Shown here: positions 333-22,926 of the stretch, piece by piece
Numbering within the stretch: position 1 is the first letter of the stretch
Layout of the letters: every line of letters begins with the position of its first letter
From: Candidatus Hadarchaeota archaeon
Lineage (GTDB): Archaea > Hadarchaeota > Hadarchaeia > Hadarchaeales > Hadarchaeaceae
NCBI GenBank assembly: GCA_964514965.1
Contig: CAZETV010000002.1
Coordinates: 120,001-152,000, forward strand
Direction of reading: 5' to 3'
DNA: 32,000 bases
Program-made: the position numbers and the translations under genes
The notes under the pieces: model-generated
The model's database searches: none
Seen by the model: the letters and a program-made list of their open reading frames with translations, nothing else
Told to the model about the DNA's origin: nothing

Positions 333-343
333 TGCCGATATTT

Positions 344-555
344 GGTCCCGTAGGGGTTCGGGGGGTTCAAACCCTACCCCCGCACCAACAAAAATCGTGC
401 AAAAATCCTGCCCAATTTTTGCCTGAAAATTGCACGAAAGATTTAAACGCCGCACCACAAAAATTACGCAAAAATCCTGCTCGAATCCTGCCCGGTTCTT
501 GCGAAAAATCGTTTGGGAGATTTGAACGGGGGCTTGAACCTATCCGGGCCCGCCA
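344..555. repeat. Composite ~215-nt repeat R1, built from three tRNA-3'-end-like modules (344-387, ~434-457, 515-555; each ends ...CCGCACCA or ...CCCGCCA on the plus strand) separated by two hairpin-forming spacers
   Basis: Aligns by eye along its whole length with the reverse complement of 10214-10430, with one ~10-nt indel. Contains stems TCGTGCAA(395-402)/TTGCACGA(430-437) and CGCAA(467-471)/TTGCG(499-503). Confidence 0.8.
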
Positions 556-600
556 TATGTATACCGTAAGTTTTGCCCAATTCTAGCGGTACGAGTAAAC

Positions 601-5065: not shown

Positions 5066-5070
5066 CTAGT

Positions 5071-6743: not shown

Positions 6744-6789
6744 GGTGTGTCCAACGAAGTCTTGTCTTCCAGCTCTTAAGTTGTAGGGA

Positions 6790-6885
6790 TGGGGCCAGGG
6801 TCGGGATTTGAACCCGACACACGGGATATCTGCGAGAAAAACTCCCCACAGTCCCGGATGTTAACCAAACTACACTACCCTGGCC
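6790..6885 (-). tRNA. tRNA-His(GUG): tRNA-His (GUG) with encoded G-1 and CCA and a canonical ~18-nt intron after position 37
   Basis: Reverse complement reads G-GCCAGGG-TA-GTGT..ACAT-C-CGGGA-CTGTGG[GGAGTTTTTCTCGCAGAT]A-TCCCG-TGTG-TCGGG-TTCAAAT-CCCGA-CCCTGGC-C-CCA. Confidence 0.9.
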
Positions 6886-7009
6886 ACGACTAAAAATTGG
6901 TGAGACTTGTATTTAGATTTACTTTTTTCGCGAGGTCTGGTAGTTAAGAACCGTGCCTAGGGCTAAAGCGAATATCATACAAATACTTTCTCACAGAAAA
7001 AAATAAAAC

Positions 7010-8026: not shown

Positions 8027-8279
8027 TCATCAGTCAACAACAAGATGGGCTGGCACGACTTCTTTTTCCCTTCTACAGTTTAACTAAAAATTTTGTTGAC
8101 AATCTGCTTGGTAATTCGACTCTAAATATGCCCCAAGGTATTATCAAAACCTTAAAAAAAACGGAGCGGTCAAGAATGATTGGATGGATTGCTGAGCCCG
8201 CTAATTTTATGCTAAAAAAATGTGTGGAATACATGTTGGCGGTTGAAAACGAAACTCATGTTGAAGGAGGTCTGAAAAC

Positions 8280-9413: not shown

Positions 9414-9578
9414 AGATGTGAAGGTATAAGCGCCCAGTTATAGCTGGAGTAATTATTGTTACTTTGCCATTATCCGTGTGTGATTAGCGTTGCACTGCAG
9501 CGAAAATCTTTCTTTTCCTTTCAGTACTTCTCCAGAGATTTTAATTCCAAAAAATTAGGATAAGTTAACAGCGAAGTC

Positions 9579-9591
9579 AATGCTGTGTAAG
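9579..9591. repeat. 13-nt direct repeat AATGCTGTGTAAG, left copy, flanking the MazG-like gene
   Basis: Identical 13-mer recurs at 9987-9999. Both are preceded by AGT(C). Confidence 0.6.
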
Positions 9592-9632
9592 ATATTCGAA
9601 CCAGCATTCGAACCCGCTATTTAATGAACTTG

Positions 9633-9952
9633 TTAATCACTCTCTGAACCTGCACTACCTTTCTTCAGTCTGGTTTCATATTTTTTTAGGACTAATTCTA
9701 ATGCTTCTTCTAAATCAACACCAAAAGAATTAGCTATTGTAATAAGTGAATATAGTAAATCCCCCAGTTCAGTTTTTAACTGTTCTCTATACTCAAGTGG
9801 TTTTCTACCATAGTCACTCATTTTAAGAATTTCTTTTGCAACCTCCCCAAGTTCGGATAGAGTATCTAAGACCCTGTGTTCCGGGGGGATTCCAAACCTT
9901 TTTTTTGACAAAACTCCTTTATTTTCCTTTGAAGATGTTTTAAATCGCTCAT
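9633..9952 (-). pseudogene. MazG-like nucleoside triphosphate pyrophosphohydrolase, split by a frame change inside an A8 tract (T8 at 9899-9906 on plus)
   Basis: ATG at 9952 opens MSDLKHLQRKIKEFCQKK, a typical MazG N-terminus, which stops after 28 codons. The -1 frame continues RFGIPPEHRVLDTLSELGEVAKE...ELGDLLYSLITIANSFGVDLEEAL (MazG EExxE/D helices) to 9633. One extra A, or a -1 slip, restores a protein of about 106 aa. Confidence 0.65.
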
Positions 9953-9986
9953 AACCACACCTATTTTATTAACCTATTTAATAAGT

Positions 9987-9999
9987 AATGCTGTGTAAG
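9987..9999. repeat. 13-nt direct repeat AATGCTGTGTAAG, right copy
   Basis: Identical to 9579-9591. Confidence 0.6.
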
Positions 10000-10027
10000 G
10001 GCTCTGTTGAAAGTCTATATTTTTAAC

Positions 10028-10152
10028 CCGCCGGGGAGTTGGACTCCCGTGTGGCGGGGGGGAAACACAGTAGTGGTGTGTTTTCCATGAGTAGCAGCAT
10101 CTTGAGGAAAATAAAGCGTTTGCTTGTCAGGAACCGCGTGCCGCGGTTCCTG
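10028..10152. other. GC-rich cluster of three strong hairpins within AT-rich DNA (possible small structured RNA or recombination/termination element)
   Basis: H1 10028-10057: CCGCC-G-GGGAGT-TGG-ACTCCC-GTGT-GGCGG. H2 10061-10086: GGAAACACA/TGTGTTT(T)CC. H3 10128-10152: perfect 11-bp stem CAGGAACCGCG-TGC-CGCGGTTCCTG. Confidence 0.35.
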
Positions 10153-10213
10153 CACGCGATGGGTCCGAAGACTTACGAGTTCGCGGATCACGCACTCGCG
10201 CTGCTCTTACGCG

Positions 10214-10430
10214 TGGTGCGGGGGAGTAGGTTCAAGCTCTCGTTCAAATCTCCCAAAAGATCTTTCGCAAGAATCGAGCAGGTTTCGAGCAGGATTCATG
10301 CGTAGTTTTTGCGGTGTAGAGTTCAAATCTTTCGTGCAATTTTTGGGCAAGAATCGGGCAAGATCGAGGCAGGATTTTTGCATGGATTTTGGTGGTGCGG
10401 TATTAAGGGTTTGAACCAAGATTTGTACCC
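10214..10430. repeat. Composite ~215-nt repeat R2 (inverted copy of R1) with three modules beginning TGGTGCGG, GCGGTG and TGGTGCGG
   Basis: Modules at 10214-10254, ~10311-10337 and 10393-10430. Spacers form stems CGCA(10266-10269)/TGCG(10299-10302) and CGTGCAA(10333-10339)/TTGCATG(10378-10384). Collinear with the reverse complement of 344-555. Confidence 0.8.
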
Positions 10431-10479
10431 ACACTTTTAATTTTTGATCCTTGATAAATGGGAAGTCACAGGTTTTTGA

Positions 10480-12984
10480 TTACAAAGGCGACCAAGTATC
10501 TTCAGCTAATCGTTTCCAATCATTAGGACCAAGAGCGATTAAAGTCGCAAGATCTGCTAGTGCTTTCCCACGAATTATGTACAGTGTTGGTTTTTTCAGA
10601 GCGTTTGGCGTGATGTAAATAAATGTATTATTCCCTTCTTCCAAGGCTAGTTTTGTTTCAGCTTTCGTAAGCGTAACAGGATATTCTTTGCTTCTGCCTT
10701 TTGCCTCTATTTTCTTCGTGGTCCCATCCGGCATCCGTGATGGGATGTCGAATCCAGCCCCTCTTGCTTCGGATTCATGTAACTCGTGAGAATCAATTCC
10801 GTATTTTTCTTTTTCATAACAAAGTGCAGTTAATATACCAATTCTCCACGCAATTCTATCTTCATCAAAATTTTTCCCTAATTCCAGCTCTTCAAAGAAC
10901 TTACGCCAAGTCAAAAGTCTATCGTGGGTTTCGTTCTTGATAAATACAGGATCTAAAAACTCAAAATCTCCATCAACAACTCCCTTTCTATCAAGTATCC
11001 CCCTTTCCAGCAATAATTCAATGTTCTTTTCCGGTTCAAATTCTTTTGAAAACCAGACTTTCTTTGGGTCGATCCATTTGCCAGTTTTCGTTTTAACTAA
11101 AATTCCAGAAAGATCATTGGAACCTACAAACCCATTCTCCCACCATCCTTTCAGCAATTTGACATTATTCACTTTTTCATCATCAGGAATACGCGTATCT
11201 GCCAATTTCTTTAGTAATTCAGGGACGCGATCTCTTCTCATATGAGTTTCTAACACATCCCTACCCAATTCTTGAGCTCCAAGCCTTCTGAGGTACTTGA
11301 GAATTAACTCGTCCCTTAAGTCTGGATGCAAGAATCTGAATTTACTTGGAAAGTATTCCGCTCCACGATTTTCAATCTCGGCATTTTCTGGAATCCAAAT
11401 ATCGGAAGCCCGACAAGTTTGCTGCTCTTGATCTAGAAAGCTTGTAATACTTAGATAATCGTACTTTATCTGAGATTGGTAGCCTTCAGAATATCCTAAA
11501 AATTCTTCAGCTAACGCTCGCAGACATTGCCTATAGTATTTCAACCATTCGTCCCTGAAAGTAGCCTTAAAACGTTCAAAATCAAACGGATAACTTCGGA
11601 AAAAATCACGGATTAACTGGAAGTTTGATATCCCTAACAATTCGTGAGGTCGGCAATCGGGATGAAGAATTTTTTTGCCCGAGAGCTTTTCGATTGATTC
11701 TTCCCCTAAAAACCTCACAACACTCTCAGATACTTGAATGGTTTCATTTGCTCTGACGAAAGATCCATCATGTCGTACAAAGTGATCTCCATTTCTAATT
11801 TCGCTTTCAATGGGATTTAACAAGTATCTATCAATCATATAAGGTTTGGCCCGTGTAATGAGAACATTTGTGTAAGAAAATTTCCATCTCTCGTGAATTT
11901 TGAATATCTTGATAATCTTTTGAATCAGGATATTTACGGCCTCTTCCAATAACCATCTATTCCAAGAGGTCTCATACTTAATTTCTTCTCTGCCAGGAGC
12001 TGTTAAAAAGTCTGCATGCAACATAAATGGGATTCCTCCGTATTCAACTTCTCGAGTAGGGACGTGGCTAAATATACCAAACGCTATAGTTCCCGAAGGT
12101 TCCGTTGTAAGGTCCATTTGCTCATTTAATCTAAAAGCGATTCCAATCTCTCGCTTTTCTACGCGACTTCTCCATTCCTTGGTGACGGGATCAGCTCTAA
12201 TATCCTCAGGAACTTGAAGCGCATGTCGAAAAACAAGCCATTTTGTAATATCGATTTTTCCATTGTAATTGAATTCAAGTTGGTGGATCTCGTAATTGTC
12301 TCTTTTTTCTAAGATTGATTTTCTTATGATTTTCCTCTTTCCATCCCACGCTAGCTGGATCTCATTCAAATGACGCAAAAACAAAAGTGTGCGTGGATGC
12401 AGATTCTCAAATTCTTCTCGCAACTTTTGAATTCCTTCCTGTTTTAAAGGGATTGAAAAGATTGTTCCTTGAGTTTTTATTCTTTCGAAGAATTCTCTTG
12501 GCAGTTCATCAATCCAAATAGGCGTAATCTGCCAAGGAATTTTCGTAGGCTCGGCCCAATGATTCTTGTCGAATTTAAATCGGTAAGGAGTTGAGTAAAT
12601 GTGCGGACATGAAGAGATTAAGAAAATGGACTTAAATCCGACTCCTAGATACCCCAAGTACTCACGCGGATCTTTTCGGGATCTGCCTACTGAACATATA
12701 GGTTCCACATCGTCTGGGGAGAAAGAACCACCATTATTGTAAATTTTTAAAGTGGTTTCTTCCAAAGTTGCATCTATTTCTGTAGCTCCTGCATCTTCAG
12801 CATTTTGGAAGAATTCAAGCAAGAAATGACCAATTCTCGGAAAAGTAGTTTCTACTATCCACATTGCTCCGGCTAGCGCTTCTAAAACGCGTCCGTCCTT
12901 TGTGTAACTTTCCCTGATTTTATCGATATGTTCTTTGGCTTGTCTTTCATCATTCGCTAAAATTTCTTCTCCCATTAAAATCAT
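10480..12984 (-). CDS. Sacsin/MORC-type GHKL (Bergerat-fold) ATPase fused to a C-terminal DUF3883 / PD-(D/E)xK-like domain
   Basis: 834 aa. N-box LLEFFQNAEDAGAT, G1-like KIYNNGGSF and G2 GYLGVGFKSIF within the first ~130 aa. C-terminus ARGAGFDIPSRMPDGTTKKIEAKGRSK...NTFIYITP matches the G-x-G-[YF]-D-I...IE-x-K-G pattern of DUF3883 (NOV C-terminal) domains. AT-rich codon usage. Confidence 0.7.
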   Translation of the reverse strand: MILMGEEILANDERQAKEHIDKIRESYTKDGRVLEALAGAMWIVETTFPRIGHFLLEFFQNAEDAGATEIDATLEETTLKIYNNGGSFSPDDVEPICSVGRSRKDPREYLGYLGVGFKSIFLISSCPHIYSTPYRFKFDKNHWAEPTKIPWQITPIWIDELPREFFERIKTQGTIFSIPLKQEGIQKLREEFENLHPRTLLFLRHLNEIQLAWDGKRKIIRKSILEKRDNYEIHQLEFNYNGKIDITKWLVFRHALQVPEDIRADPVTKEWRSRVEKREIGIAFRLNEQMDLTTEPSGTIAFGIFSHVPTREVEYGGIPFMLHADFLTAPGREEIKYETSWNRWLLEEAVNILIQKIIKIFKIHERWKFSYTNVLITRAKPYMIDRYLLNPIESEIRNGDHFVRHDGSFVRANETIQVSESVVRFLGEESIEKLSGKKILHPDCRPHELLGISNFQLIRDFFRSYPFDFERFKATFRDEWLKYYRQCLRALAEEFLGYSEGYQSQIKYDYLSITSFLDQEQQTCRASDIWIPENAEIENRGAEYFPSKFRFLHPDLRDELILKYLRRLGAQELGRDVLETHMRRDRVPELLKKLADTRIPDDEKVNNVKLLKGWWENGFVGSNDLSGILVKTKTGKWIDPKKVWFSKEFEPEKNIELLLERGILDRKGVVDGDFEFLDPVFIKNETHDRLLTWRKFFEELELGKNFDEDRIAWRIGILTALCYEKEKYGIDSHELHESEARGAGFDIPSRMPDGTTKKIEAKGRSKEYPVTLTKAETKLALEEGNNTFIYITPNALKKPTLYIIRGKALADLATLIALGPNDWKRLAEDTWSPL

Positions 12985-13000
12985 GCCTATTACATGTAAA

Positions 13001-13672
13001 CTATTTACCTGTTCTTATTTCTCCTGCTTCCATTTCTTTTAACGTTCCATTTATCACATCTATCATCTCTTCGGGAACCGTATGTGTGGGATATCTTCTG
13101 CTCCCTGTTTTCCAATATATTCGATAGGATCTAGTTATCGCTAAATCTCTCGGCGCTGGGTACGTTCCTCTCATATCCCTTATCTTTGCTAGTATGTCGA
13201 TCCATGTTGCACCTCCATAAGCCTTATCCCACTTGCTCTCTTTATGTAGTTCAATAATAGCCTTCAAAAAATGATATGCTCTATTTTTAGTGTCCTTTAA
13301 TGCTCCCAAAACCTCTTTGCGTATATCACCCTGCCTATCCTCTAGCCTGAAAATGCCTTTCTTAATATCGAAATAGTAGTGCTTACCTATAAAACAATCT
13401 ATCTCTGTGTATTCAGGCAGGCCGACCTCATTCAGAGCAGAAATAAACTTTTCATCGTCTAGTTTCTCTGGATTAGTTAGCTCTTCCAGAGCTTTTTCTT
13501 TCTCTTCAGCTACAAAGTAAGCGTAAGTGTCTTTACTAAACTTATAGTCGAAATCATCAAACCACTTTAACCTGGCTACCTTTCCTAACCTATAAAGCCT
13601 TCTATCATTATAGAAAAATCTTCTCAGCAAAATATTCCTTTCTTTCACTTTAGATTGACTCATGTTACCCAT
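13001..13672 (-). CDS. Hypothetical protein, partner of the GHKL-DUF3883 gene (no recognisable domain)
   Basis: 223-aa ORF ending 16 nt upstream of the 834-aa gene start, same strand. TTTATAA (reverse complement of 13691-13697) lies ~22 nt upstream of the first ATG, so the real start may be the ATG at 13663 on a leaderless or short-leader mRNA. Confidence 0.6.
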   Translation of the reverse strand: MGNMSQSKVKERNILLRRFFYNDRRLYRLGKVARLKWFDDFDYKFSKDTYAYFVAEEKEKALEELTNPEKLDDEKFISALNEVGLPEYTEIDCFIGKHYYFDIKKGIFRLEDRQGDIRKEVLGALKDTKNRAYHFLKAIIELHKESKWDKAYGGATWIDILAKIRDMRGTYPAPRDLAITRSYRIYWKTGSRRYPTHTVPEEMIDVINGTLKEMEAGEIRTGK

Positions 13673-13690
13673 AAATTTTAATGGTTTTCC

Positions 13691-13697
13691 TTATAAA
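13691..13697 (-). promoter_or_regulatory. Putative archaeal TATA box for the 223-aa/834-aa operon
   Basis: Minus-strand TTTATAA preceded by purine-rich AGC, 22-31 nt upstream of the two candidate ATGs. Confidence 0.35.
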
Positions 13698-13804
13698 GCT
13701 TTACCGTATTAGGTCAAGCTTGCTCTTATACGATATAGATAACCAAAAAAACGGTTTCCCGTAAAATCTCCTCAGAAAATGCCTAGGCTACTTAGCAGAA
13801 CCTA

Positions 13805-13848
13805 TGGTGTGAAAGTTGGATTCACACCCTCGTTCATACCCTCACCCC
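13805..13848. repeat. Degenerate copy of the ~42-nt tRNA-3'-end-like module (TGGTGTGAAAG..CTCGTTCATACCCTC), containing an 8-bp hairpin
   Basis: Aligns with 10214-10254 and 15230-15270 (shared TGGTG...GxTTCA...C.CGTT.A.A.C). Hairpin GGTGTGAA-AGTTGGA-TTCACACC at 13806-13828 lies ~80 nt downstream of the 369-aa gene stop. Confidence 0.5.
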
Positions 13849-13908
13849 CCTTGCGGTTACAGGCTGAAGTTGTAGTGGGTTTGGTTAGGTTTCATATCTA
13901 CTCAAGGC

Positions 13909-15009
13909 CTAAATCCACTTTTTGTACTTTAGATAGTAGACGTAAACAGCCACGATCTCGTCAAATACATTCTCAAGATTCTCGAAAAAGAACGGTGTGT
14001 CAGGATCGCAGATGTGTGTAGCATAGTTTCTTAACGCCCAAAGAATGAGAACATTCTTTTCAGGCCTATTGCACTTTAAAGCTTTCCTCACTAGATCATC
14101 GAAATCCTTTGGTGTCTGAGGACTTTTGTTTCTTGGATTTACTTCGTTCTTAAACCAAGTTTCTTTCCCGAATATTGCAGATAATAGTTCGCCTAATGTT
14201 CCAGAAGTCTTTTCATAGTATCTCATCCTTAATTCAATGAATCGACAAAGGCTGATTACTCCGTCAAATAGCCTTAATCTGGTGTAGATGTTATTCCTGT
14301 TCAAATAAATCCCACGATCTTTCTCTTCTTTTAGGAGCACCAGATTTCTATGAACGACCCAAAGTGAGCCCTCTAGCAAAGCGCGTTGCTCTGGAGAATC
14401 GTCAAGTTCCTTAAATAATTCATCAATGTTAACACTATCTTTGAATTCGGTGTTGTATTTGTCGATTGCTTTTTTCATCATAATCCAAGGAGCCTCTCCG
14501 CCAAACTGGCTTATGCCTTGACGATGAGCGCTTTCTGTAAACTGAGTGTATAGTGGATTGTGGAAGATGTTCTTAGTAGGGTCCCCCGCCCATCCTCTAT
14601 CTTCGTGGCAAGCCCAAAGCAGGTAAGCGATGCCTCCGTCAAGGTCTCCTTCGGCTAATGCAGATACACCAAGATTTCCACAAACCATTCCCTTGTTAAG
14701 TGGTTTATTGTTTTTCTTCTCGTATTCGTTAATCGCGTTCAATATTTGCCAATAATACATTTTAGACATGCCTGTGACGTTCTTTTGTAAAAATGGTATG
14801 CCAATATTGTTTGCCCGATTGAAATACTCATTCTTTTTGTCATAGCCTCCTTCTGGCTTTTCATGATCGTATGGTTCCGCCGCTTTCATGTCTTGTTGTA
14901 GATCCATTAATCCCAAAGACACAGCTTTCTCGTATGACTTGAGACAATCAATCGCGAGAGTAATCCCAAGCCTGTAATTGTTCCACCTACCGAACTCTAA
15001 CAGAGACAT
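13909..15009 (-). CDS. Hypothetical helical protein with a C-terminal HEPN-type RNxxxH motif (candidate RNase/abortive-infection effector)
   Basis: ORF 13909-15018 opens with GTG. The ATG at 15009 is preceded by GGTGA 5 nt upstream, so it is the preferred start (366 aa). ...LILWALRNYATHICDPD... gives R-N-x3-H in a predicted helical C-terminal region. No other motif recognised. Confidence 0.55.
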   Translation of the reverse strand: MSLLEFGRWNNYRLGITLAIDCLKSYEKAVSLGLMDLQQDMKAAEPYDHEKPEGGYDKKNEYFNRANNIGIPFLQKNVTGMSKMYYWQILNAINEYEKKNNKPLNKGMVCGNLGVSALAEGDLDGGIAYLLWACHEDRGWAGDPTKNIFHNPLYTQFTESAHRQGISQFGGEAPWIMMKKAIDKYNTEFKDSVNIDELFKELDDSPEQRALLEGSLWVVHRNLVLLKEEKDRGIYLNRNNIYTRLRLFDGVISLCRFIELRMRYYEKTSGTLGELLSAIFGKETWFKNEVNPRNKSPQTPKDFDDLVRKALKCNRPEKNVLILWALRNYATHICDPDTPFFFENLENVFDEIVAVYVYYLKYKKWI

Positions 15010-15229
15010 AAATTTCACCTATCTTTTTAGGTCCAACACCTAAATAGAAGTTGCCTTTCTGTAGGGAATTGTCAGAATCTAACATTGTGTTTAACGCGAT
15101 AATTATTTTTAAGATATGCTTACATGCACCTTCGACTCCAAACTAGTTTCAGAACGCCTTTTCCAGCTTTTTACGGCTCCTTTACGGGAAAACTACGTGA
15201 AAAATGCCCAGATGGCTTCGTGGAATGTA

Positions 15230-15270
15230 TGGTGCGGGGGGTTAGGTTTATGCTACCGTTTAAATCTACC
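15230..15270. repeat. Third direct copy of the ~42-nt tRNA-3'-end-like module (TGGTGCGGGGGGTTAGGTTTATGCTACCGTTTAAATCTACC)
   Basis: Same orientation as, and alignable with, 10214-10254 (TGGTGCGGGGGAGTAGGTTCAAGCTCTCGTTCAAATCTCCC). Confidence 0.65.
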
Positions 15271-15483
15271 GAAACTCGCGATCCACTCATCGCTTATTTA
15301 TAACTTATTTTATAAGATATAGATATTCTGGGCGCTGACTGGCATTAACCCCCAATCAAACGACTCGCACAAGGAAAGCATAGTAGTCGAAGGGTCAATC
15401 CCCATTACTCTTTGCTTTAAGGGTCTAGCTCACGTGGCCGCCACCTATTGGAATTTGCAGCCTCCCGGGCGGCACGCAAAAGG

Positions 15484-15490
15484 CTTTATG
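15484..15490 (+). promoter_or_regulatory. Putative BRE/TATA element of the alba gene
   Basis: GCAAAAGG-CTTTATG lies ~37-55 nt upstream of the candidate ATGs at 15527 and 15542. Confidence 0.3.
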
Positions 15491-15541
15491 CCACCCCACC
15501 AAATTAAGGGCGCCCGACTAAACAAGATGAGGCAGGAAACA

Positions 15542-15865
15542 ATGGCTGAAGAAAAGGCAGCAGAGAAAAAAGTAGTTGCGGAAAAAAAGGCAGCGGCAGA
15601 AAATGCCGTTTTTATCGGAATAAAACCAGTGATGAACTACGTGTTGGCAGTGATAACGCAGTTCAACATGGGGACCGGTGAGGTCACCCTCAAGGCACGA
15701 GGCAAAGCCATCAGCAGGGCCGTCGATGTAGCAGAGATCGTCAGAAATCGATTTTTGCAGAGTTTGGCCGTGAAGAACATCCAAATTGGAACTGAGGAAC
15801 TTCAGGCCGAAAGTGGCACCATTAACGTGTCCACCATAGAGATAACGCTTGGAAAGGGTGAATGA
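15542..15865 (+). CDS. albA: Chromatin/RNA-binding protein Alba with a Lys/Ala/Glu-rich N-terminal extension
   Basis: C-terminal ~90 aa ([45 protein letters not shown]...V....I.IGTEEL) is a canonical Alba fold sequence. Start assigned to the ATG at 15542 (alternative 15527). The ORF-track start at 15434 is unlikely. Confidence 0.9.
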
Positions 15866-15880
15866 ACACCTTTCCGACAC

Positions 15881-15896
15881 TTTTATTTTTTGTTTT
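15881..15896 (+). terminator. Oligo-T terminator after alba
   Basis: TTTTATTTTTTGTTTT starts 16 nt after the stop codon. Archaeal RNA polymerase terminates at T runs. Confidence 0.5.
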
Positions 15897-16132
15897 CAAT
15901 CTCTGGCAGGAGCCATTCGATTGTTGTAGTATAACTGGCATGAGTTATTTTCAGCTCCCGACAAATTCTCGATCGATTATAGGCAAAACCGCCGCGTGCT
16001 CGAGGGGCTCATAAGCATAGAGAGCAAGCCGCTCAGGAACAATATAGCAGGCTATATAACCACTCTATTAAAACAAAAATTCGAGGAGAGATAAAGTGCC
16101 ACCTTCGATTAGTGCAAAGCTCTGCAATGCCG

Positions 16133-16678
16133 CTAATGTCGGGAGAGGATTCTGTTTATCTTTTGTGCTGCTCTTTTTACATCTCTCATGCTCTTCACCC
16201 CGGCGCATACACCCTTGCCCGATACGAAGAGCAACAATACCGCCTTAGGATCGTCGAGCCTGAACACGAGGCCTGGGAAAATCTCCGGCTCGTATTCGGT
16301 GTTCTCGAATCTGATAGCTATATGCTCGAGATCGAACTTCCTGCCGAAATTAACGGATGCCACGATATTCTGAACCTTGACTTTTGGCTCCGTTTTCACC
16401 TTTATGTGTGCTTCTCTGATCTTTCGGGTCAGCTTCTTTATCGCAAGCTTGGCATCGGCCATGCTCCTAGCGCCGACGCAGTTCATCTTACCCGAGGCGA
16501 AGATGAGAAATGATGCTCGAGGATCCTCTGATTTATAGACTACGCCGGGAAAGCTTTCCGGATCGTAGCGTGCGCCGTCCAACGACCTAGCCAACTTATG
16601 GAGGTTGAACTCTGTGTCCTCGTATGTGACCGAGAGCACGATATTTTGGATTTTAATTCTTACTCCAGCCATCTCCAC
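16133..16678 (-). CDS. tbp: TATA-box binding protein
   Basis: 181 aa with the two direct TBP repeats (IQNIVLSV...FPGVVYK...ASFLIFASGKMNCVGA and VQNIVASV...FPGLVFRL..PKAVLLLFVSGKGVCAG). Confidence 0.95.
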   Translation of the reverse strand: MEMAGVRIKIQNIVLSVTYEDTEFNLHKLARSLDGARYDPESFPGVVYKSEDPRASFLIFASGKMNCVGARSMADAKLAIKKLTRKIREAHIKVKTEPKVKVQNIVASVNFGRKFDLEHIAIRFENTEYEPEIFPGLVFRLDDPKAVLLLFVSGKGVCAGVKSMRDVKRAAQKINRILSRH

Positions 16679-16880
16679 CCCATAGATTAATTGGTATGTT
16701 GTACTTGCCCATTTCGGTTACACTACCTCCTAGGCGTCGCGCAAAGGATAAAATCAGGGTCAAACATCAGAGGATCAAGAAGTATGGCAAGCGATCAAAG
16801 ATGAGGACGGCAATAAGAGAGGAGCCGACAAAGCTACCGCTAATTCGAGAGAAAATGCCAAAGCCTTAGGTAAAAGGAGC

Positions 16881-17123
16881 TTACTCCCTAACAACTTCAG
16901 CTGTGGCAAATCTTGGCCGCACTTCATTTATGCGGATCTTTACCTCATCCCCGACATTTGCGCCGGATACGAAGACCACAAAGCCCTGCACGCGAGCGAT
17001 CCCATCCCCGCTTTTGCCCCGTCCTTCTATCTTTACTGTAGGGGTGTCACCCGCCTTAACCGGTGCGGGTGTAGATGGTCCTCGTTCAAAGCCTCTTGGT
17101 CTGTCTCCACTTCGTCTGTACAC
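16881..17123 (-). CDS. TRAM-domain protein
   Basis: 80 aa. VKAGDT..VKIEG.GKSGDGIARVQGFVVFVSGA.VGDEVKIRI.EV..RFA.AEVV is the stand-alone archaeal TRAM/OB pattern. Confidence 0.85.
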   Translation of the reverse strand: MYRRSGDRPRGFERGPSTPAPVKAGDTPTVKIEGRGKSGDGIARVQGFVVFVSGANVGDEVKIRINEVRPRFATAEVVRE

Positions 17124-17554
17124 TTCTCCAACTCCTTTCTCTTGGATAGAGTAACTCTTCGTCTACGCTATTAACACTTCCTACATATGATGTATGATGT
17201 CTCCTTTAATGACGGGATTTTACCTTAGGGATTTCGAAAGAGTCTCGATCTGTACTGTGTCTAAAAAATGCAGGTATGAGCTTGGAGAAGGAAGATAACC
17301 ACTACTTAGCTAACAACCCCGCGTCTTTTTATCGAAAGTGGGAGAATAGGTTTGTGGTAAAATGGGTAAAAGGATCTTAAAGGGGATCCGAGAACGGAAG
17401 AGAAGGGAGAGAAAGAGGTCAGAAAGGTAACCTTATTATAAGTTCGACCCCTAGTTTGGATTTACCCGGGAGATTCTTGTTTTTAAGGAGCCCTCCCTCT
17501 TTCTTCAGTTCTTGGCTGCACGCAACTCCAACAACGCCGCTGCTTTTGTGATCA

Positions 17555-18211
17555 TCAACGCCCAAATTTCCTTTCTTGCGCATGGTACCAACTGAAGGCC
17601 GCCTCCCAATCTTGTTCTGTGCATTCAGGAAATAGTTTTTTGATAAAGTAAAGCTCAGAATATCGTGCTTGAATACTTAAGAAATCGGACAATCTTTGAA
17701 GGTTGCCTGTTCTTATTATTAGATTAGGTTCTATATCTACCATCAAAAGAGACTTCACCTCTGATTCCGGTTCCCTAGATGCTTTCAAACAAGCATTCAA
17801 AAATTCATGTTGAGCACTCCATGCCATTAGAAACACCACACAGTGTCTTGTATAGGCTTTAGTGGCTTCGGTAAGTTGATCCATTACCTCCCTCAAAGAA
17901 ACTGGGAATACTTCTCGTTGTGTAGAATAAAACTGAAAATTAATCTGTTTTTGATGAACTTCTGAATTCGAGTCCAAGTATTTTCGAAACTCTTTTTCAT
18001 AAAGAGCGAATACCTCTTCGAGCTTTTCTTTGGGTCTTTTGAGATTATCTTCGCTCAAAGCATAAACAATTATATGCGAGACATCCTTTTGAGAACAGAA
18101 GTCTAGGAACGTCCTTAGTGTTTCTACGCCCTTTCTAAATACCTCAGCCTCGGATATACCGTATTTTTCAGCGTATCTACGGTTACCATCCGGTATAAGC
18201 CCGACGATCAT
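17555..18211 (-). CDS. uppS: cis-prenyltransferase (undecaprenyl/di-trans,poly-cis-polyprenyl diphosphate synthase family), divergent
   Basis: 218 aa. IPDGNRRYA (DGNRRWA motif), VYALSEDNLKRP, IIRTGNLQRLSDFL and YSELYF correspond to conserved UPPS blocks with several substitutions. The gene sits in an AT-rich patch. Confidence 0.7.
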   Translation of the reverse strand: MIVGLIPDGNRRYAEKYGISEAEVFRKGVETLRTFLDFCSQKDVSHIIVYALSEDNLKRPKEKLEEVFALYEKEFRKYLDSNSEVHQKQINFQFYSTQREVFPVSLREVMDQLTEATKAYTRHCVVFLMAWSAQHEFLNACLKASREPESEVKSLLMVDIEPNLIIRTGNLQRLSDFLSIQARYSELYFIKKLFPECTEQDWEAAFSWYHAQERKFGR

Positions 18212-18354
18212 GAAAAATCACCATTCTGTGTTACTTAAGTCGGCTATAAATATTTCAGAAGATGCCAAAGTCACCCTTATGCCGTTGCTACTCTGTACCA
18301 AAACCCGCCAAATTTTTGGCCATCAGCGCGTACTCCTTTTTTGATATATCAAAT

Positions 18355-18400
18355 TAGGCTCATGACCCAATTAAACTACCCATTTTCCAAGCCCAAAAAT
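18355..18400. repeat. 46-nt direct repeat, copy A (TAGGCTCATGACCCAATTAAACTACCCATTTTCCAAGCCCAAAAAT)
   Basis: 41 of 46 positions identical by eye to 18882-18927, same orientation. Confidence 0.8.
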
Positions 18401-18526
18401 CTGGCAAACAAATCTCCCCCTAAAACAAAGTCCACGCTCAAAGGGGACTTATAAAGGGAGATTTTGTCAAAATAAGGTGTTATAAGCGTGTCATGGTTTC
18501 GGAGTTAGGGAAACGTCGAAAAAAAG

Positions 18527-18769
18527 TCAAGTTTTGACACTAGGAGACCAAGCTTGAAGTTTCCATTCATCCTCACCTAAATCCAAGTTTTCAAAACATC
18601 TACTACATACCAACCTTGGTCTTCTTTTCCTCGGAAACCTCACTATCCACATCTTGTCTTGCGGAAATTCCTTTCCGCACTTGTAGCATTTGTATTGTTT
18701 TCGCAATTTACCCTCCTCCCGGCAGACTTCTGGTGGGCCAGTTACGTGGCCATGCCATGCGGCTATCAC
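18527..18769 (-). CDS. Small zinc-ribbon protein (CxxC...CxxC), hypothetical
   Basis: 80-aa ORF (GTG start) with CYKCGK...CSRCF. Overlapped in another frame by a 39-codon ORF (18708-18827, MPTRKFTDEQLREGYARGLSDS...). Confidence 0.45.
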   Translation of the reverse strand: MIAAWHGHVTGPPEVCREEGKLRKQYKCYKCGKEFPQDKMWIVRFPRKRRPRLVCSRCFENLDLGEDEWKLQAWSPSVKT

Positions 18770-18881
18770 TTAACCCACGAGCATAACCTTCTCTTAACTG
18801 TTCATCCGTGAACTTGCGTGTCGGCATTCTTATCACCTTTATTTACCCAACTACTTTTGGATTGGATTAAAATTTTCCTAA

Positions 18882-18927
18882 TAGGCTCATGATCCAATTA
18901 AAACGCCAATTTTCCAAGCCCAAAAAT
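18882..18927. repeat. 46-nt direct repeat, copy B
   Basis: See 18355-18400. Confidence 0.8.
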
Positions 18928-19034
18928 AGGGCAATCGGGGGGGCGTTCTGCGGGCCGATTAGATGCCGATGTATCAAGTTTTAAGAAACCTATCTCTTTC
19001 GCTTCTTCTTTCGCTTTTTGGCCCTTGCCATTTT

Positions 19035-19895
19035 TCACCCCTCCTTCCACTTCTTTTTCCCTTTTTTCTGAACTGCCGAGGTTAAACCGAGCACTTCTCC
19101 AAGCTGGGTGCCGAGCTGGGTTGGGCTCACCACGATCATGTTCTTCTCGCGAGCTATCTCAGTCATGGTTTGGAGTTCCCGAAGCCTCAGTGCGGACGGG
19201 TTCTTATGGTACTGCTTTGCAGCCTCGGCCATTTTCTTCGCCGCCTCGAACTCGCCTTGGGCCATTATCACCCTCGATCTCCGTTCCCGCTCCGCTTCCG
19301 CCTGCTTAGCTATCGCGCGGAGCATCTCCTCGGGCAGGCTCACGTCCCTTACCGTCACCGAACTCACCTTTATGCCCCAAGCATCAGTCCCCTCATCGAG
19401 GATCTTCTGAAGGCTCGCATTCAGTTCATCACGCTTAGTCAGCAGTTCGTCTAGGTCCCTTTGCCCGAGCACATCGCGCAGCGTGGTCTGAGCGAGCAGG
19501 CTTGTGGCCATGATGTAGTGCTCCACCTTCATTATGGCATCGTTCGGGTTCACCACCCGCATGTAGACGACCGCATCGACATTGACGCTCACGTTGTCCT
19601 TGGTGACCACACTTTGTTTAGGTACATCGAGCGTTAGCGTGCGCAAGTCGACCTTCATTATCCTATCGAGTATCGGAACGATCAGGAAGATCCCAGGCCC
19701 CTTGATCCCAGCGAACCTGCCCAACCTGAATTTCACCGCCCGTTCGTACTCCCGCAGGACCCTTATCGCGGCCATCAGAAATAGGGCGACGAGAAAAACT
19801 ATGGAAACAATTAACCCTACCAACCAATCCTCGGGCACTGGTTCACCAAACTCCATTCTAATGCCCGTATTTAAATCCACTACCGGCGTCAGCAC
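19035..19895 (-). CDS. SPFH/band-7 (stomatin/prohibitin-like) membrane protein
   Basis: 286 aa. N-terminal TM helix, then REYERAV.FRLGR......GPG...I.P..D....VDLR....DVP.Q...TKDNV...VDAVVY..V..P and a coiled-coil AEAERE region. Confidence 0.9.
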   Translation of the reverse strand: MLTPVVDLNTGIRMEFGEPVPEDWLVGLIVSIVFLVALFLMAAIRVLREYERAVKFRLGRFAGIKGPGIFLIVPILDRIMKVDLRTLTLDVPKQSVVTKDNVSVNVDAVVYMRVVNPNDAIMKVEHYIMATSLLAQTTLRDVLGQRDLDELLTKRDELNASLQKILDEGTDAWGIKVSSVTVRDVSLPEEMLRAIAKQAEAERERRSRVIMAQGEFEAAKKMAEAAKQYHKNPSALRLRELQTMTEIAREKNMIVVSPTQLGTQLGEVLGLTSAVQKKGKKKWKEG

Positions 19896-19953
19896 GATTT
19901 TGAATTTGACTAGCGTAGTACATTTTCAGGTGGTAGTACCATCGAAAAATGTT

Positions 19954-20196
19954 TCAAGTGGTACTATTTTTCCTCATTTTTGCCGTATTTTCCCGTGACC
20001 GGCCGCGGATTATCATCGTGCCATATCGCTTGAGTGCTTCGCTGCCCTGGAGTTCTTCCGCATCCTCGAGCACGAGATTTACGTGGGTGTCAACCCCACT
20101 TATCTTGCCCCGAAACTCCCTGCCGCCCTTGAGGCTCACGAGTACCGATGAGCCGAGAGCGCGGTTTAAGACATCTAGAGGTCGCTGCGCGGGCAT
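19954..20196 (-). CDS. Sm-like (LSm/SmAP) RNA-binding protein with a basic C-terminal tail
   Basis: [43 protein letters not shown]...GTMIIRG contains the Sm1 and Sm2 motifs. Start assigned to the ATG at 20196; the track start at 20208 is TTG. Confidence 0.85.
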
Positions 20197-20415
20197 GAAA
20201 ATCGTCAATCTCTCAGTGATGCCACATTTAAGCGTTGCTTACGACGCCACGGGTAAGAAAGTAGGGACGTTTTTTGAGCATTACTGGGGGGAAAGCTCGA
20301 ATTACCTCCCACTATCGGATTTTTTATTTTTACGCGATAGGTCTAAGCTCCACACTAGCCGGTCCTCCGCTACGGGTATACTCCCAAAAAATCAAGGGCC
20401 CATGCAAAACTTGAT

Positions 20416-21627
20416 CTATCTCTGCTCAAAGTCCACTTTGATGCCGTAGACAAATCGAAGGGTTGCATAGTGGTCCCCCAACCCCAGCGATTGAACTCTA
20501 TCCAAGATGCCCTCGGATCGATAATCGTGCGCAATTGTTGCCATGTCTACGTATGCCCTAGTGCCCCTTTTAGACCCACATTTCGGGACGATAACCTTCC
20601 AATCGGGGTAAAGAATAACTTTGGCGATGCTATCCACCTCGCCCAGCTTGTGGCCTCCACCGTGAGGAAGTATATTCGCTCCCCTTAACTTCTCATACGC
20701 CCATCTATCAATAGCCCTCGAACCAGTCACAACTTTGATTTTTTCCGGAGAAAGGTTCATTCTGCCCTTGACGAGGCACGCCGGGAAATCATCGGTTAAA
20801 GTTATCACGAAAATCTCTCCTTCCTCGTGGATGAGGTTACATCCGATAATTGCTTCGTTGGGGCCGATCAGCTCATAATGGTTGTGATTCGCTATTACCT
20901 CGCCTCCAAAAATCTCTACAAAAAGAAGCTTTCTTTTTCTCTTGGAAAAGTCGCTCGCGTACCCGCAACGTTCTCTGTACTCTCGTGCATCGGCGCCCTG
21001 CAGGACGTATGATTTGCCGAAGGGCGTCCGCATTTCTTCGGCCCTTTCACAAACGAAGTTAATTAATGAGTCACGCATTTCGTCCGAAGAGGTGTGTAAG
21101 ACCGCGACTATCCTCGGCAGATCAAGGGTTTCGTAATTTTCAACCTCATATAAATTCAAAAAATGGCTGCCCGGGCTAAAATTTCTCAACCCGATTTCTT
21201 TGCCATCGATTTTGAGACCTTTTTCCCTCATTTCGTGTAGGATGTCCAATATTTCTTCAAGATCGGGATCGTTTTTTGCTGCACCGACTAACATGCCACA
21301 AAAGTCAAATTCCATCTCCCCGGGGACGAGGTCATACGAGCCATCCCCCCATATGATTTTGCCTCCCTCGGGGATCGATTCATAAAATTTGTGGGGGGAT
21401 GTTTGAAACGTGAAATCCGGCGCGCCGATGAACATGGCCCGGGGTTCATATCCCAATTTTTCTTGGATGTAATGCATCTTTGCTACAAAGAAGGTTGTAT
21501 TTATCTTACCAACCTCCTCGGCGGGATCGTTCATCCCCAAGTTGAAAAGATATTTCTCCGCATTTTTCATCCTCTTATCAAATTCCTCTCTACTCAGCGG
21601 GTAGCGTCCCCTCAATTCATATTCCAT
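20416..21627 (-). CDS. Divergent RtcB-superfamily protein (RNA ligase-like)
   Basis: Motifs in RtcB order: EFDFCGM (D..C metal site), SPGSHFLNLYEV (GNHF-type), VLHTSSDE (HSGSR-type), ANHNHYE (HN), PHGGGHKL (HGAGR-type). Shorter than canonical RtcB, and the N-terminal PDxHxG block is not recognisable. Start assigned to the ATG at 21627; the track start at 21675 is GTG. Confidence 0.45.
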   Translation of the reverse strand: MEYELRGRYPLSREEFDKRMKNAEKYLFNLGMNDPAEEVGKINTTFFVAKMHYIQEKLGYEPRAMFIGAPDFTFQTSPHKFYESIPEGGKIIWGDGSYDLVPGEMEFDFCGMLVGAAKNDPDLEEILDILHEMREKGLKIDGKEIGLRNFSPGSHFLNLYEVENYETLDLPRIVAVLHTSSDEMRDSLINFVCERAEEMRTPFGKSYVLQGADAREYRERCGYASDFSKRKRKLLFVEIFGGEVIANHNHYELIGPNEAIIGCNLIHEEGEIFVITLTDDFPACLVKGRMNLSPEKIKVVTGSRAIDRWAYEKLRGANILPHGGGHKLGEVDSIAKVILYPDWKVIVPKCGSKRGTRAYVDMATIAHDYRSEGILDRVQSLGLGDHYATLRFVYGIKVDFEQR

Positions 21628-21799
21628 TGGATCACCAAGATAGATATAGCAATTCCTCCAATAACTTTTGCGCACAAAGGGAGAATATCTTAAAGCTAAA
21701 AAATAAGATGGTCTGAATCCTGCTTACAGGTAAAGCTATGCATCAACGCAATAATTGGGTTTTGATCTAGCAAATGATACTTTCAGCTTTTTACTAAAT

Positions 21800-21828
21800 G
21801 CGCCAGCCATTTTTGACCTATGGTGCGG
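21800..21828. repeat. 29-nt direct repeat (GCGCCAGCCATTTTTGACCTATGGTGCGG) duplicating the 3' flank plus 3' terminus of tRNA-Leu
   Basis: 27 of 29 identical to 22799-22827. Continues into a diverged T-arm-like sequence to about 21857. Confidence 0.8.
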
Positions 21829-21926
21829 TATTAGGGGTTTGAACCCAGATTTGTACCTCAGGCAAAATTCTGGGAGATTTTTGGAAAAACTTCGTAAATC
21901 TTGCCCAGATCACTTAGCGAGACTTA

Positions 21927-21963
21927 TGGTGCGTTATTAGGGATTTGTACCTAGGTTTGTACC
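21927..21963. repeat. Further degenerate tRNA-3'-end-like module (TGGTGCGTTATTAGGGATTTGTACCTAGGTTTGTACC)
   Basis: Resembles 21821-21857 and 10393-10430 (TGGTGCGGTATTA(A/G)GGGTTTGAACC.AGATTTGTACC). Confidence 0.55.
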
Positions 21964-22026
21964 TTCCAGAAGATCTCCGGAAAATCTCCTCGGACACTAA
22001 ATTATTGGGCATCTACTTTTCCCTCG

Positions 22027-22584
22027 CTAACTCTTCTTCAAAGAGTGAGGAATATAAAAGTTAGATTCTTTCTTCTCCATAAATAGCTGGTATGGTCGAA
22101 GTATAGTAGGCGTTTCGCTCTCTGGATATTCTTCTCTTTCAATAAATCCAGCAGACTTGTAGATATGCTGAGCTACAGTCATGAATTTAGAAGTTTCGAG
22201 CAGGAATGAAGAACATCCAAACTCTCTGCCCACCTCTAATAGTCTATTTAGCATCTGTTTTCCATAGCCTCTTCCTCTGTAAAGGGGACGGATGTACATC
22301 CGCTTGATTTCTCCAATCTCATCACTCAATTTCCTTAGTGCTCCCATCCCAGCGATATTTCCTTCAACTACCAGTAAGTAAATGATACCATCTGGAGGTT
22401 TCAAACTTGTAAGATCTTCAAGATGGGCATCAACATATTCTGAAATGGTCTGTCCAATGATGGAAACAGCATCAAGCTGGTAATTCTCTCTGAATTGATC
22501 TGCAATCCATGTTATAAGTTCAATATTCAGCTGGACGTATTCTTCTTTGTGAACATCCAGGTCGAGTGGAACAAACTCTTCCAT
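22027..22584 (-). CDS. GNAT-family N-acetyltransferase
   Basis: 185 aa. The acetyl-CoA binding motif MYIRPLYRGRGYGKQMLNRLLE (R/Q-x-x-G-x-G/A) and beta-strand pattern are typical of GNAT. Confidence 0.85.
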   Translation of the reverse strand: MEEFVPLDLDVHKEEYVQLNIELITWIADQFRENYQLDAVSIIGQTISEYVDAHLEDLTSLKPPDGIIYLLVVEGNIAGMGALRKLSDEIGEIKRMYIRPLYRGRGYGKQMLNRLLEVGREFGCSSFLLETSKFMTVAQHIYKSAGFIEREEYPESETPTILRPYQLFMEKKESNFYIPHSLKKS

Positions 22585-22616
22585 GCAATAGCCCTCTTCT
22601 ACATATTTGGCTCATT

Positions 22617-22763
22617 CTAGATATTAATTTCACATTTTGCTGCGGGTTGTCCCCCTCTTGGAACCTCTTCTGGAACCCAGCGGGGTTGAAATATAATAAA
22701 GATCAAAGCGCTCACAACCAAAATCGCTGCAATAATCCCAGCCGCAATAGCAAATTTACTCAT
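22617..22763 (-). CDS. Possible 48-aa single-pass membrane peptide (below the ORF-track cutoff)
   Basis: Translated by hand: MSKFAIAAGIIAAILVVSALIFIIFQPRWVPEEVPRGGQPAAKCEINI. Lies between tRNA-Leu and the GNAT gene, same strand as GNAT. Confidence 0.3.
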   Translation of the reverse strand: MSKFAIAAGIIAAILVVSALIFIIFQPRWVPEEVPRGGQPAAKCEINI

Positions 22764-22798
22764 GGCGCGTTTTCACGCCAGACTCTATTCTACCAAAG

Positions 22799-22827
22799 GC
22801 GCCAGCCATTTTTGAGGTATGGTGCGG
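22799..22827. repeat. 29-nt direct repeat, copy overlapping the genuine tRNA-Leu 3' end
   Basis: See 21800-21828. Confidence 0.8.
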
Positions 22828-22926
22828 GGGAAGGGATTTGAACCCTCGAACTCCTAAGAGACCAGCCCCTCAAGCTGGCACCTTTAGTCGGTCGTTAGAC
22901 CTTTGACCTGACTCGGCCACCCCCGC
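22820..22926 (-). tRNA. tRNA-Leu(GAG): tRNA-Leu (GAG), class II, encoded CCA, with a ~19-nt insertion/intron at the D-stem 3' side
   Basis: Reverse complement: GCGGGGG-TG-GCC-GAGTCAGGTCAAA-GG[TCTAACGACCGACTAAAGG]T-G-CCAGC-TTGAGGG-GCTGG-TCTCTTAGGAGTTC-GAGGG-TTCAAAT-CCCTT-CCCCCGC-A-CCA. AAAGGT repeats at both insertion borders. Confidence 0.85.

Follow-up and report, generated by a model that had tools for sequence, protein, structure and literature searches.

A tandem array of probable gene cassettes at the 3' end of a tRNA-Leu gene in a Candidatus Hadarchaeota genome

The tRNA-Leu locus and its variable region

The stretch of DNA analysed here, 32,000 nucleotides of a Candidatus Hadarchaeota archaeon (contig CAZETV010000002.1, positions 120,001 to 152,000; hereafter the window), carries a tRNA-Leu(GAG) gene followed by a series of direct repeats resembling the 3' end of that tRNA, and the genes lying between these repeats were probably brought in one after another as small cassettes. 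The tRNA-Leu(GAG) gene (22820..22926, - strand), which anchors the array and would serve as its attB-like attachment site, matches the Rfam tRNA model with 43.7 bits (Rfam placement 22823-22926), has an encoded CCA and carries a 24-nt insertion in its D arm. It lies directly downstream of the RpoD gene (22965-23753, - strand), whose product is 94% identical to that of contig L002, from a Candidatus Hadarchaeota metagenome-assembled genome (MAG), and 80-91% identical to those of several Hadesarchaea MAGs, which assigns the window to a Hadesarchaeon. The final 11 nt of the tRNA, CCCCCGCACCA, constitute the shared core of the array. Eight relatives have an invariant 3' half, from which that of the window's tRNA deviates at five positions, two compensatory pairs among them.

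The gene order in two related contigs, L002 and L003, is S13-S4-S11-RpoD-tRNA-Leu, a gap of 1.1 and 2.2 kb, respectively, and cofH-OCD-RibD-TraB...AOR, the latter genes being oriented as in window positions 1443-9413. Nucleotide homology with L002/L003 ends at window position 22820 and restarts at 9491, and the variable region is thus delimited to 9492-22819 (13.3 kb), in which at least eight junctions are present. A preliminary description of this DNA, made from the sequence alone, had placed the limits of the island at 10214-15270, which is too short. The homology with all the relatives ends exactly at 22820. Contigs of many relatives terminate 0.1-3 kb from the rpoD-linked tRNA-Leu, as expected of a repeat-rich polymorphic spot. 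An independent assembly (Logan) of the same sequencing run agrees with window positions 9591-25361 and 486-9608 at 100% identity, its contigs breaking at 486, 9591-9608 and 25361, inside repeat units or tRNA-Ser. The agreement over 9591-25361 covers seven junctions and, as two assemblies concur, the order found inside the array does not stem from the error of a single assembler.

Repeat modules and their junctions

The three repeat copies reported in the preliminary description, at 10214, 13805 and 15230, were checked against the sequence and found correct in position and in their single orientation. The 11-mer TGGTGCGGGGG occurs on the + strand at 10214, 15230 and 22820 and on the - strand at 377-387; at one mismatch or less, five matches were observed vs 0.49 expected, and 0/100 shuffles gave five. 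The 10214 and 15230 copies show 80% identity across 45 nt (10214-10258 vs 15230-15274) and belong to a module type, A, whose consensus was derived from 62 metagenome contigs of other genomes only, the window not being included. In ungapped comparison with this consensus they score 36/45 and 40/45, respectively, whereas 200 locally shuffled windows reach 28/45 at most, and the similarity on which the earlier proposal was built therefore exceeds that of shuffled sequence. The 13805 copy had been called degenerate and is indeed decayed, ending in ...TTTCACACCA and failing to reach 27/45. Its junction, CACCA|TAGG (the module ends in CACACCA), and the 50-nt flank downstream belong to a family conserved in other genomes, and the flank following it (13756-13804, of the beta family) shows 96% identity over 24 nt.

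A second module type, B (GGTACAAATCTGGGTTCAAACCCCTAATACCGCACCA), which was missing from the initial list, is represented at 21927, 21821 and 10393, with scores of 36-39/45 when compared with the copies of other genomes (shuffles <=27), and a decayed B-like copy, likewise unlisted, is present on the - strand at 9579-9614. Besides the tRNA gene itself, the window thus contains seven further - strand copies, all repeating the 3' end of the tRNA in its own orientation. Read in the tRNA sense, every junction has the form module-CACCA|flank, and the flanks fall into four families, alpha (TAGGTCAAAAATGGCTGGCGC), beta, gamma and delta. An inverted pair of 6-12 nt, made up of the starts of the flanks (TAGGTY...) and the ends of the modules (...RACCTA), surrounds a shared core of 9-11 nt.

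No tRNA was reported at the modules by ARAGORN or by Rfam, even at E<=10, tRNA-Leu and tRNA-Ser being the only ones found, and with zero Rfam matches at this threshold the possibility that the modules are tRNAs or another known RNA family was rejected. The earlier statement that they are not tRNAs agrees with the lack of a tRNA-model match, but the reason offered for it, a T-arm part unable to fold, applies less well to the family as a whole, the consensus of which retains a T-arm-like 5-bp stem (GGTAG/TTTAAAC/CTATT) that has deteriorated in the copies of the window. When flank+module and module+flank units were folded as DNA, z values of +0.78, -1.33, +1.59, +0.60 and -0.90 and no attC-like hairpins were obtained, and a paired TAGGCA motif is no more frequent in the window than expected by chance.

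The same junctions in other Hadesarchaeal contigs

Extra direct copies follow the same tRNA in L006, L007, L009, L012, L022, L024 and L033, and at the rpoD-linked loci such copies lie downstream of the tRNA and in its orientation in 8/8 cases. A search of related genomes for empty sites, as suggested in the preliminary description, revealed polymorphism exactly at the tRNA end. Contigs L019 and L022 (~90% identical) constitute an empty/occupied pair, L022 carrying a 2,719-bp insert while in L019 the tRNA is joined straight to the shared downstream sequence; the insert consists of a gamma flank, a P-type ATPase gene and an A module and is bounded by a core repeat of 11-15 nt. Breakpoints of presence or absence coincide with the repeats in four comparisons (window vs L002/L003, L019 vs L022, L064 vs L085 and L066 vs L104). 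Moreover, a 2.65-kb cassette comprising a B12-radical-SAM gene and a module of a third type, C, but no integrase, occurs 98% identical at two sites, following tRNA-Leu(CAG) in one contig (L066) and an A module in the other (L104). The homology extends from CCCCCGCAC| to the CCA of the module, and the only sequence shared on the left, CCCCCGCAC, is too short for homologous recombination.

The metagenome scan for the A module returned 62 contigs. Mean pairwise identity among 44 non-redundant A copies is 0.77 in the 34 non-core nt vs 0.28 in the 34 nt after the CCA, a conservation that is partly circular because 20/45 nt were set by the search pattern. Alpha, beta/gamma and delta flank families all occur next to tRNA-Leu as well as next to each of the A, B and C modules, and the junction is invariably at the CCA. 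Core-to-core intervals (50 non-redundant) include 16 of 90-261 nt (mode ~98) consisting of flank and module only; the remaining 34/50 span 0.65-10.5 kb and contain 1-3 ORFs in most cases. In other contigs, 13/50 of the non-redundant intervals are flank+module units of 90-122 nt. The orientation of the cargo ORFs is unbiased (52 sense vs 43 antisense); in the window array, 10/11 larger genes run in the direction of the tRNA, with Alba as the exception. Exact-protein look-ups for strain variants of the window returned only contigs from the same sample. Contigs L024 and L025, assigned to the same MAG026, both carry S4-S11-RpoD-tRNA-Leu (89% identical) with different inserts (2.2 kb vs 1.1 kb) and represent either two strains binned together or a duplicated locus. 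A 10-nt duplication, TTCTGGAGGG, around the L006 cargo was considered as a sign of a second insertion mechanism and dropped, as it was not seen in other cassettes.

Organisation of the array in the window

Starting from the tRNA, with all parts on the - strand unless mentioned otherwise, cassette 1 (21965..22819) comprises an alpha-type flank (22788-22819) and a GNAT gene (22027-22584; Pfam Acetyltransf_1, 6.6e-17). It has a GC content of 0.40-0.43 and is not found in L002/L003; its flank shares 83% identity with 21789-21846 and falls into flank family 2 of the comparison between genomes. The cassette is terminated by a B-type module (21927..21971; 39/45 vs the L006 copy) as its attR-like end. 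Next to it is an 'empty' unit of 106 nt (21821..21926), in which a beta flank (21859-21926) abuts a B module (21821-21857) with zero cargo. A 6.6-kb block (15275..21820) then extends from an alpha flank (21789-21820) to the A module at 15230; based on Pfam matches, it codes for a 419-aa protein, Band7, an 80-aa ORF, UppS, TRAM, TBP and Alba, the last on the + strand, and it is not present at the rpoD-tRNA-Leu locus of L002/L003/L007. The interval to the right of the 15230 module (15271-21820) is made up of conserved genes, among them TBP, Alba and UppS, and is no simple cassette. A 53-nt direct repeat, 87% identical, lies inside the block at 18355-18407 and 18882-18934 (+ strand), flanking the 80-aa ORF (18527-18769, - strand); it begins with TAGGCTCATGA, like the beta-type flanks, on the opposite strand.

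The A-type module at 15230..15274 (40/45 vs the A consensus) is followed by a cassette (13849..15229) with a beta flank (15181-15229) and the 369-aa ORF (13909-15018), which has no family match, by the decayed module (13805..13848) and by a cassette of GC content 0.38-0.40 (10431..13804) that carries a beta flank, a 223-aa ORF (13001-13672) and the gene for an 834-aa protein (10480-12984). The B-type module bounding the latter (10393..10430) scores 37/45 against the L006 and L012 copies and is 94.7% identical to L006:1625-1662 and L012:1984-2021. A cargo-less unit (10214..10392) with a gamma-like flank (10259-10392) and an A module (10214-10258; 36/45) comes next. The preliminary description envisaged one transcription unit per interval; the interval 10214-13805, however, contains the extra module at 10393 and two genes. 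The distal part (9492..10213) is the most decayed and is not common to L002/L003. It contains a MazG-like gene (9633-9911; MazG 3e-11), the decayed B-like module (9579-9614), a delta-like flank (9492-9578) and a possible core remnant at 9989-10003. GC-rich palindromes at 10027-10062 (aacccgccgggg...cggcggggggg) and 10128-10152 (caggaaccgcgtgccgcggttcctg), in a gene-free stretch just distal to the 10214 module, could be terminators or a small RNA.

Cargo genes

The cargo in the window thus comprises the GNAT, the 369-aa protein, the pair of the 223-aa protein and the 834-aa TmtA-like protein, and MazG. The 834-aa protein matches the Pfam families SACS (sacsin-type ATPase; 2e-13) and NOV_C (1e-7), as well as the Tiamat TmtA profile of PADLOC (6.5e-91, over about half the profile), and its gene lies 16 nt from that of the 223-aa protein, for which no family match was found. 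The two may form a shortened two-gene defence cassette. The cargo in other contigs (52 proteins, metabolic, regulatory or involved in transport) includes glycoside phosphorylases, CBS proteins, methyltransferases, GNATs, oxidoreductases, regulators, transporters and radical-SAM enzymes. No integrase is present among the 25 cargo families listed, of 58, and replication, capsid and conjugation genes are absent from the cargo families seen.

The UppS, TRAM and TBP segments of the 6.6-kb block are 90-95% identical to contig L127, in which they are permuted or inverted and occupy another locus. Comparison of L127 (a 104-kb contig; 7250-10540) with window positions 15800-18264 shows a permuted order, including the Alba-adjacent segment, and an inverted TBP. 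Fragments resembling the 3' end of tRNA-Leu occur between TRAM and TBP in L127 and beside TBP in L116, where TBP sits between convergent modules; TBP homologues in the protein database are mostly from very short contigs. By analogy with the integrase-driven rearrangement in Thermococcales, blocks may be exchanged between arrays at several loci.

Tyrosine integrases at the same tRNA

Pfam searches of the main ORFs and tblastn with three integrases detected no integrase in the window, as had been noted from the sequence. The accompanying view that the recombinase is either elsewhere or lost does not apply to every lineage, as a tyrosine integrase directly follows the same tRNA in relatives, namely immediately after the rpoD-linked tRNA-Leu in L005, L010 (a different integrase) and L131/L132. 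The integrase of L005 and L131/L132 is XerD-like (~320 aa), is preceded by a 173-aa protein and heads an island of >10 kb with helicase and restriction genes. The flank of the L005-type elements begins with a 12-nt palindrome, TTTACYAGTAAA, which also occurs 8 nt upstream of the core in the C modules, including that of the integrase-less radical-SAM cassette, and which is not found in the window. The C-type cassettes of other contigs thus have att arms, marked by this palindrome, in common with the integrase elements of L005/L131/L133, a pattern that would be expected of a non-autonomous unit served in trans.

Exact-pattern scans of IMG/VR with the A module, the B module and the integrase-type junction yielded zero matches, as did a protein scan with the L005 integrase, and a viral or plasmid origin was rejected on the basis of these empty scans. 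A tRNA-Ser gene beside rpS13 (25334-25418, - strand) is a second integration site in relatives: at this tRNA, L004 (6732-8403) and L005 carry an insert of ~1.5 kb that encodes a tyrosine recombinase and is bordered by a duplication of window positions 25320-25389. In the sample from which the window comes, the Logan contig stops inside this tRNA-Ser (25361).

Interpretation and alternative explanations

The insertions described above are polymorphic, their junctions are exact, the same att arms are reused around unrelated cargo and one integrase-less cassette occupies two sites. Together with the empty/occupied pair and the shuffled combinations of modules and flanks, these comparative data support the proposal, already made in the preliminary description, of repeated integration into one att site with the formation of a tandem array. 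The region 9492-22819 is accordingly best regarded as the probable outcome of a series of site-specific insertions by which non-autonomous cassettes entered at the 3' end of tRNA-Leu(GAG). The enzyme is likely to be a tyrosine integrase acting in trans, because one occupies the same tRNA in relatives, and at least some of the cassettes are presumably still mobile.

An incoming circular unit would carry an att site consisting of a ~45-nt module, which would mimic the T-arm and acceptor end of the tRNA, the core CCCCCGCAC(CA) and a flank of ~50 nt. Recombination inside the core would restore the tRNA end, leaving the flank of the unit beside the tRNA and placing module and core on the far side, so that the newer a unit, the closer to the tRNA it would lie, with older and more decayed units in distal positions; the three copies first reported would then be far-side (attR-type) junctions. 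The units would be non-autonomous, with one to a few cellular or defence genes and no recombinase, some of them cargo-less and ~100 nt long. The excised circle of the 369-aa cassette would read ...GGGTGTGAATCCAACTTTCACACCA|TACATTCCACGAAGCC, and a precise deletion would join a module to the flank of a non-adjacent cassette, e.g. ...CCTAACCCCCCGCACCA|TAGGTTCTGCTAAGTAGCC. The altered 3' half of the window's tRNA-Leu and the copy at 343-387 described below would fit the exchange of longer att segments in some events.

Several observations weigh against serial insertion by an integrase in trans. At ~98 nt the cargo-less units are below the size at which DNA can circularise, and simple integration and excision fails to account for them; they may have lost their cargo by deletion or may point to a transposon-like mechanism. 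Decay of the modules at 13805 and 9579 implies that part of the array may be inert, the 6.6-kb TBP/Alba block looks like relocated chromosome more than a cassette, and the conservation of the A module is inflated to the extent that it was imposed by the search pattern. Further, no recombinase is tied to the A/B modules or the beta/gamma flanks in ~0.6 Mb of fetched loci, and no free circular form, viral copy or plasmid copy of any att arrangement was found. A search for integrases near other module copies, also suggested earlier, led to an integrase gene near an A module in L077, which was rejected because it abuts tRNA-Val; its family (2,627 matches) lies next to tRNA-Ile, tRNA-Arg and tRNA-Val in Bathyarchaeia and is thus unrelated to the A module.

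The explanation we regard as unlikely, albeit the strongest of the competing ones, is that the array is a graveyard of self-mobile plasmids or viruses whose integrase and backbone were later deleted, leaving the modules as inert scars. Archaeal elements are on record as integrating in tandem and subsequently losing their integrase (PMC8371274; PMC6563490), islands with an integrase exist at this tRNA in L005, L010 and L131, and the window lacks an integrase and has several decayed modules, most strongly so in the distal part. Scars should drift, however, whereas the non-tRNA parts of the A/B modules and the flanks are conserved around unrelated cargo even in genomes whose RpoD is only 62-65% identical to that of the window; likewise, the single-gene cassette without an integrase is 98% identical at two sites, the cargo-less units are uniform at ~98 nt, and the cargo is of a cellular kind, the families seen including none for replication, capsids or conjugation.

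Improbable to a greater degree are transposon-like (casposon- or miniature inverted-repeat transposable element (MITE)-like) units with short terminal inverted repeats, for which the core would be a target-site duplication of 9-11 nt and not an att overlap. Neighbouring units share one core copy, as tandem casposons at a Methanosarcina tRNA-Leu share one target-site duplication (PMC4779613), the CGCA motif kept in the casposon target (PMC4779613) lies inside this core, and the ~98-nt cargo-less units resemble MITEs. The 6-12-nt TAGGTY.../...RACCTA inverted pair around the core points in the same direction, but is equally compatible with core-type integrase binding sites. No Cas1, PolB or transposase was found among the Pfam matches of the window ORFs or the listed cargo families (25 of 58), and the enzymes encountered at this site in relatives are tyrosine integrases. 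The C modules share 17-21 nt with the tRNA and, like the 343-387 copy and the altered tRNA 3' half, suit a long att exchange rather than a duplication of fixed length; moreover, the units have one orientation only, whereas casposons at tRNA-Leu occur in both (PMC4779613). The notion that no recombination system is involved and that the repeats are tRNA-Leu pseudogene fragments, chance similarities or products of MAG mis-assembly is largely refuted and retains a very small probability. The contigs are metagenomic and the Logan assembly breaks at the three places mentioned, but the scores are far above those of the shuffles, two assemblies are 100% alike across 9591-25361, the architecture is repeated in dozens of independent contigs/MAGs and the similarity stops exactly at the CCA.

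The serial insertion of cassettes could also be part of something larger. We advance only tentatively, as an idea that is possible but still short of probable, that Hadesarchaea have a dedicated cassette system analogous to integrons and built of different parts, in which a recombinase acting in trans would shuffle cassettes, and occasionally blocks of core genes such as the TBP region, among several arrays; the 3' ends of tRNA-Leu genes would be the fixed insertion points, and the tRNA-mimicking arms of ~100 nt (A/gamma, B/beta) the portable sites on single genes. If cassettes are mobilised in trans, they would represent a second, independently built cassette-capture platform in archaea and a route by which an uncultured subsurface lineage could exchange single metabolic, transport and defence genes. 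This would also account for the breaks of Hadesarchaeal assemblies just downstream of rpoD and around TBP. If the cassettes are mere scars, the locus is an ordinary tRNA-linked genomic island. The A/B modules are handy sequence tags for variable gene pools in metagenomes, and the defined target (CCCCCGCAC at the tRNA end) together with the defined arms offers a test bed for a new archaeal recombinase.

Relation to known systems

In bacterial genomic islands and integrative and conjugative elements (ICEs), units lacking an integrase are known to accumulate at att sites as cis-mobilisable elements (CIMEs). As in these and in other tandem accretions, an intact tRNA lies at one end of the array, direct repeats of its 3' end in one orientation bound the inserts, the inserts lack an integrase, integrase islands occupy the same site in relatives and the newest insert is placed beside the tRNA. 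For archaea, too, both the insertion of elements in tandem at one site and the loss of integrase genes have been described (PMC8371274, PMC6563490). The units described here differ in being far smaller (0.1-3.4 kb, with one or two cellular genes) and in sharing only 9-11 nt with the tRNA, ~34 nt of the module and the ~50-nt flank being element-specific. Their arms are conserved across unrelated cargo and Hadesarchaeal species, ~98-nt cargo-less units are common and no cognate autonomous element was found for the A/B types. An integrase inside the element, a feature of tRNA-integrated elements, is lacking in this window. The small size of the units, the element-specific arms of ~100 nt conserved across cargo and species and the many empty units stand out as unusual.

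The array had also been likened to an integron. The likeness lies in the architecture: a single insertion point, small recombinase-less cassettes arranged in arrays, some of them empty, one cassette found at different positions, and a lineage-specific site conserved while the cargo is unrelated, all of which are shared with integrons and with clusters of attC sites lacking integron-integrases (CALINs). In the Vibrio cholerae repeats (VCRs) of Vibrio, too, the recombination site is conserved and the cargo unrelated. The likeness does not extend to the parts, as there are no attC-like hairpins (z -1.3 to +1.6, no single-strand hairpin), no R''/R' inverse core pair and no intI by the array, the upstream neighbour being rpoD and no tyrosine recombinase being present in the 32 kb, while cargo orientation is unbiased. 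In addition, the insertion point is the end of a tRNA gene, and the site is split, with the flank at the start of the cassette and the module at its end. The array thus works like an integron or a CIME array and is not a member of the integron family. Canonical integrons, with attC sites, have been described from a few MAGs of Hadarchaeota in a paper that makes no mention of tRNA (PMC9668308).

Casposons at the Methanosarcina tRNA-Leu (PMC4779613) resemble the present units in their target, the 3' end of tRNA-Leu, in their tandem arrangement and in the one shared short repeat containing CGCA; the differences are the lack of Cas1/PolB, the very short inverted terminal similarity, the uniform orientation and the long tRNA-identical segments at some junctions. 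The rearrangement by the pTN3 integrase in Thermococcales (PMC5495485) finds parallels in the inverted tRNA-Leu-derived att copies 9.7 kb apart (343-557 vs 10214-10430) and in the TBP, TRAM and UppS blocks permuted or inverted relative to a contig of 90-95% identity. In contrast to that system, no fragments of a suicidal integrase of the Sulfolobus spindle-shaped virus (SSV) type were seen, and no inversion of 556-10213 relative to L002 was detected.

A second array and an additional tRNA gene

The end of a second, convergent array, whose anchor lies beyond the window, is present at the left end (343..557, + strand) and consists of a copy of the tRNA-Leu 3' half, gamma-like flanks and an A-like module. 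The 45-nt copy (343-387) is 89% identical to the version of the relatives, with the first 18 nt identical, and the A-like module (513-557) scores 30/45. This set forms a 154-nt inverted repeat of 84% identity with 10227-10380, its arm lying at 389-542. An inversion of 556-10213 between the repeat arms was considered and rejected, as the orientation of L002 relative to rpoD matches that of the window. The gamma-like flanks (388-510 and 10259-10392) contain 11-nt periodic repeats (GCAAGAATCGG / GCAAAAATCCT) and an internal repeat of ~69 nt with a miniature module, gatttaaacgccgcacca (439-456). An ORF with a HEPN domain (2.7e-5) lies on the + strand at the extreme left end (3-332), upstream of the inverted tRNA-Leu 3' half, and is probably cargo of the second array, which would run past the edge of the window.

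Between the RibD-like gene and OCD, a tRNA-His(GUG) gene not reported by ARAGORN or Rfam was read by eye at 6793-6889 (- strand); it has G-1 and an encoded CCA, and its anticodon is followed by an intron of 18 nt.

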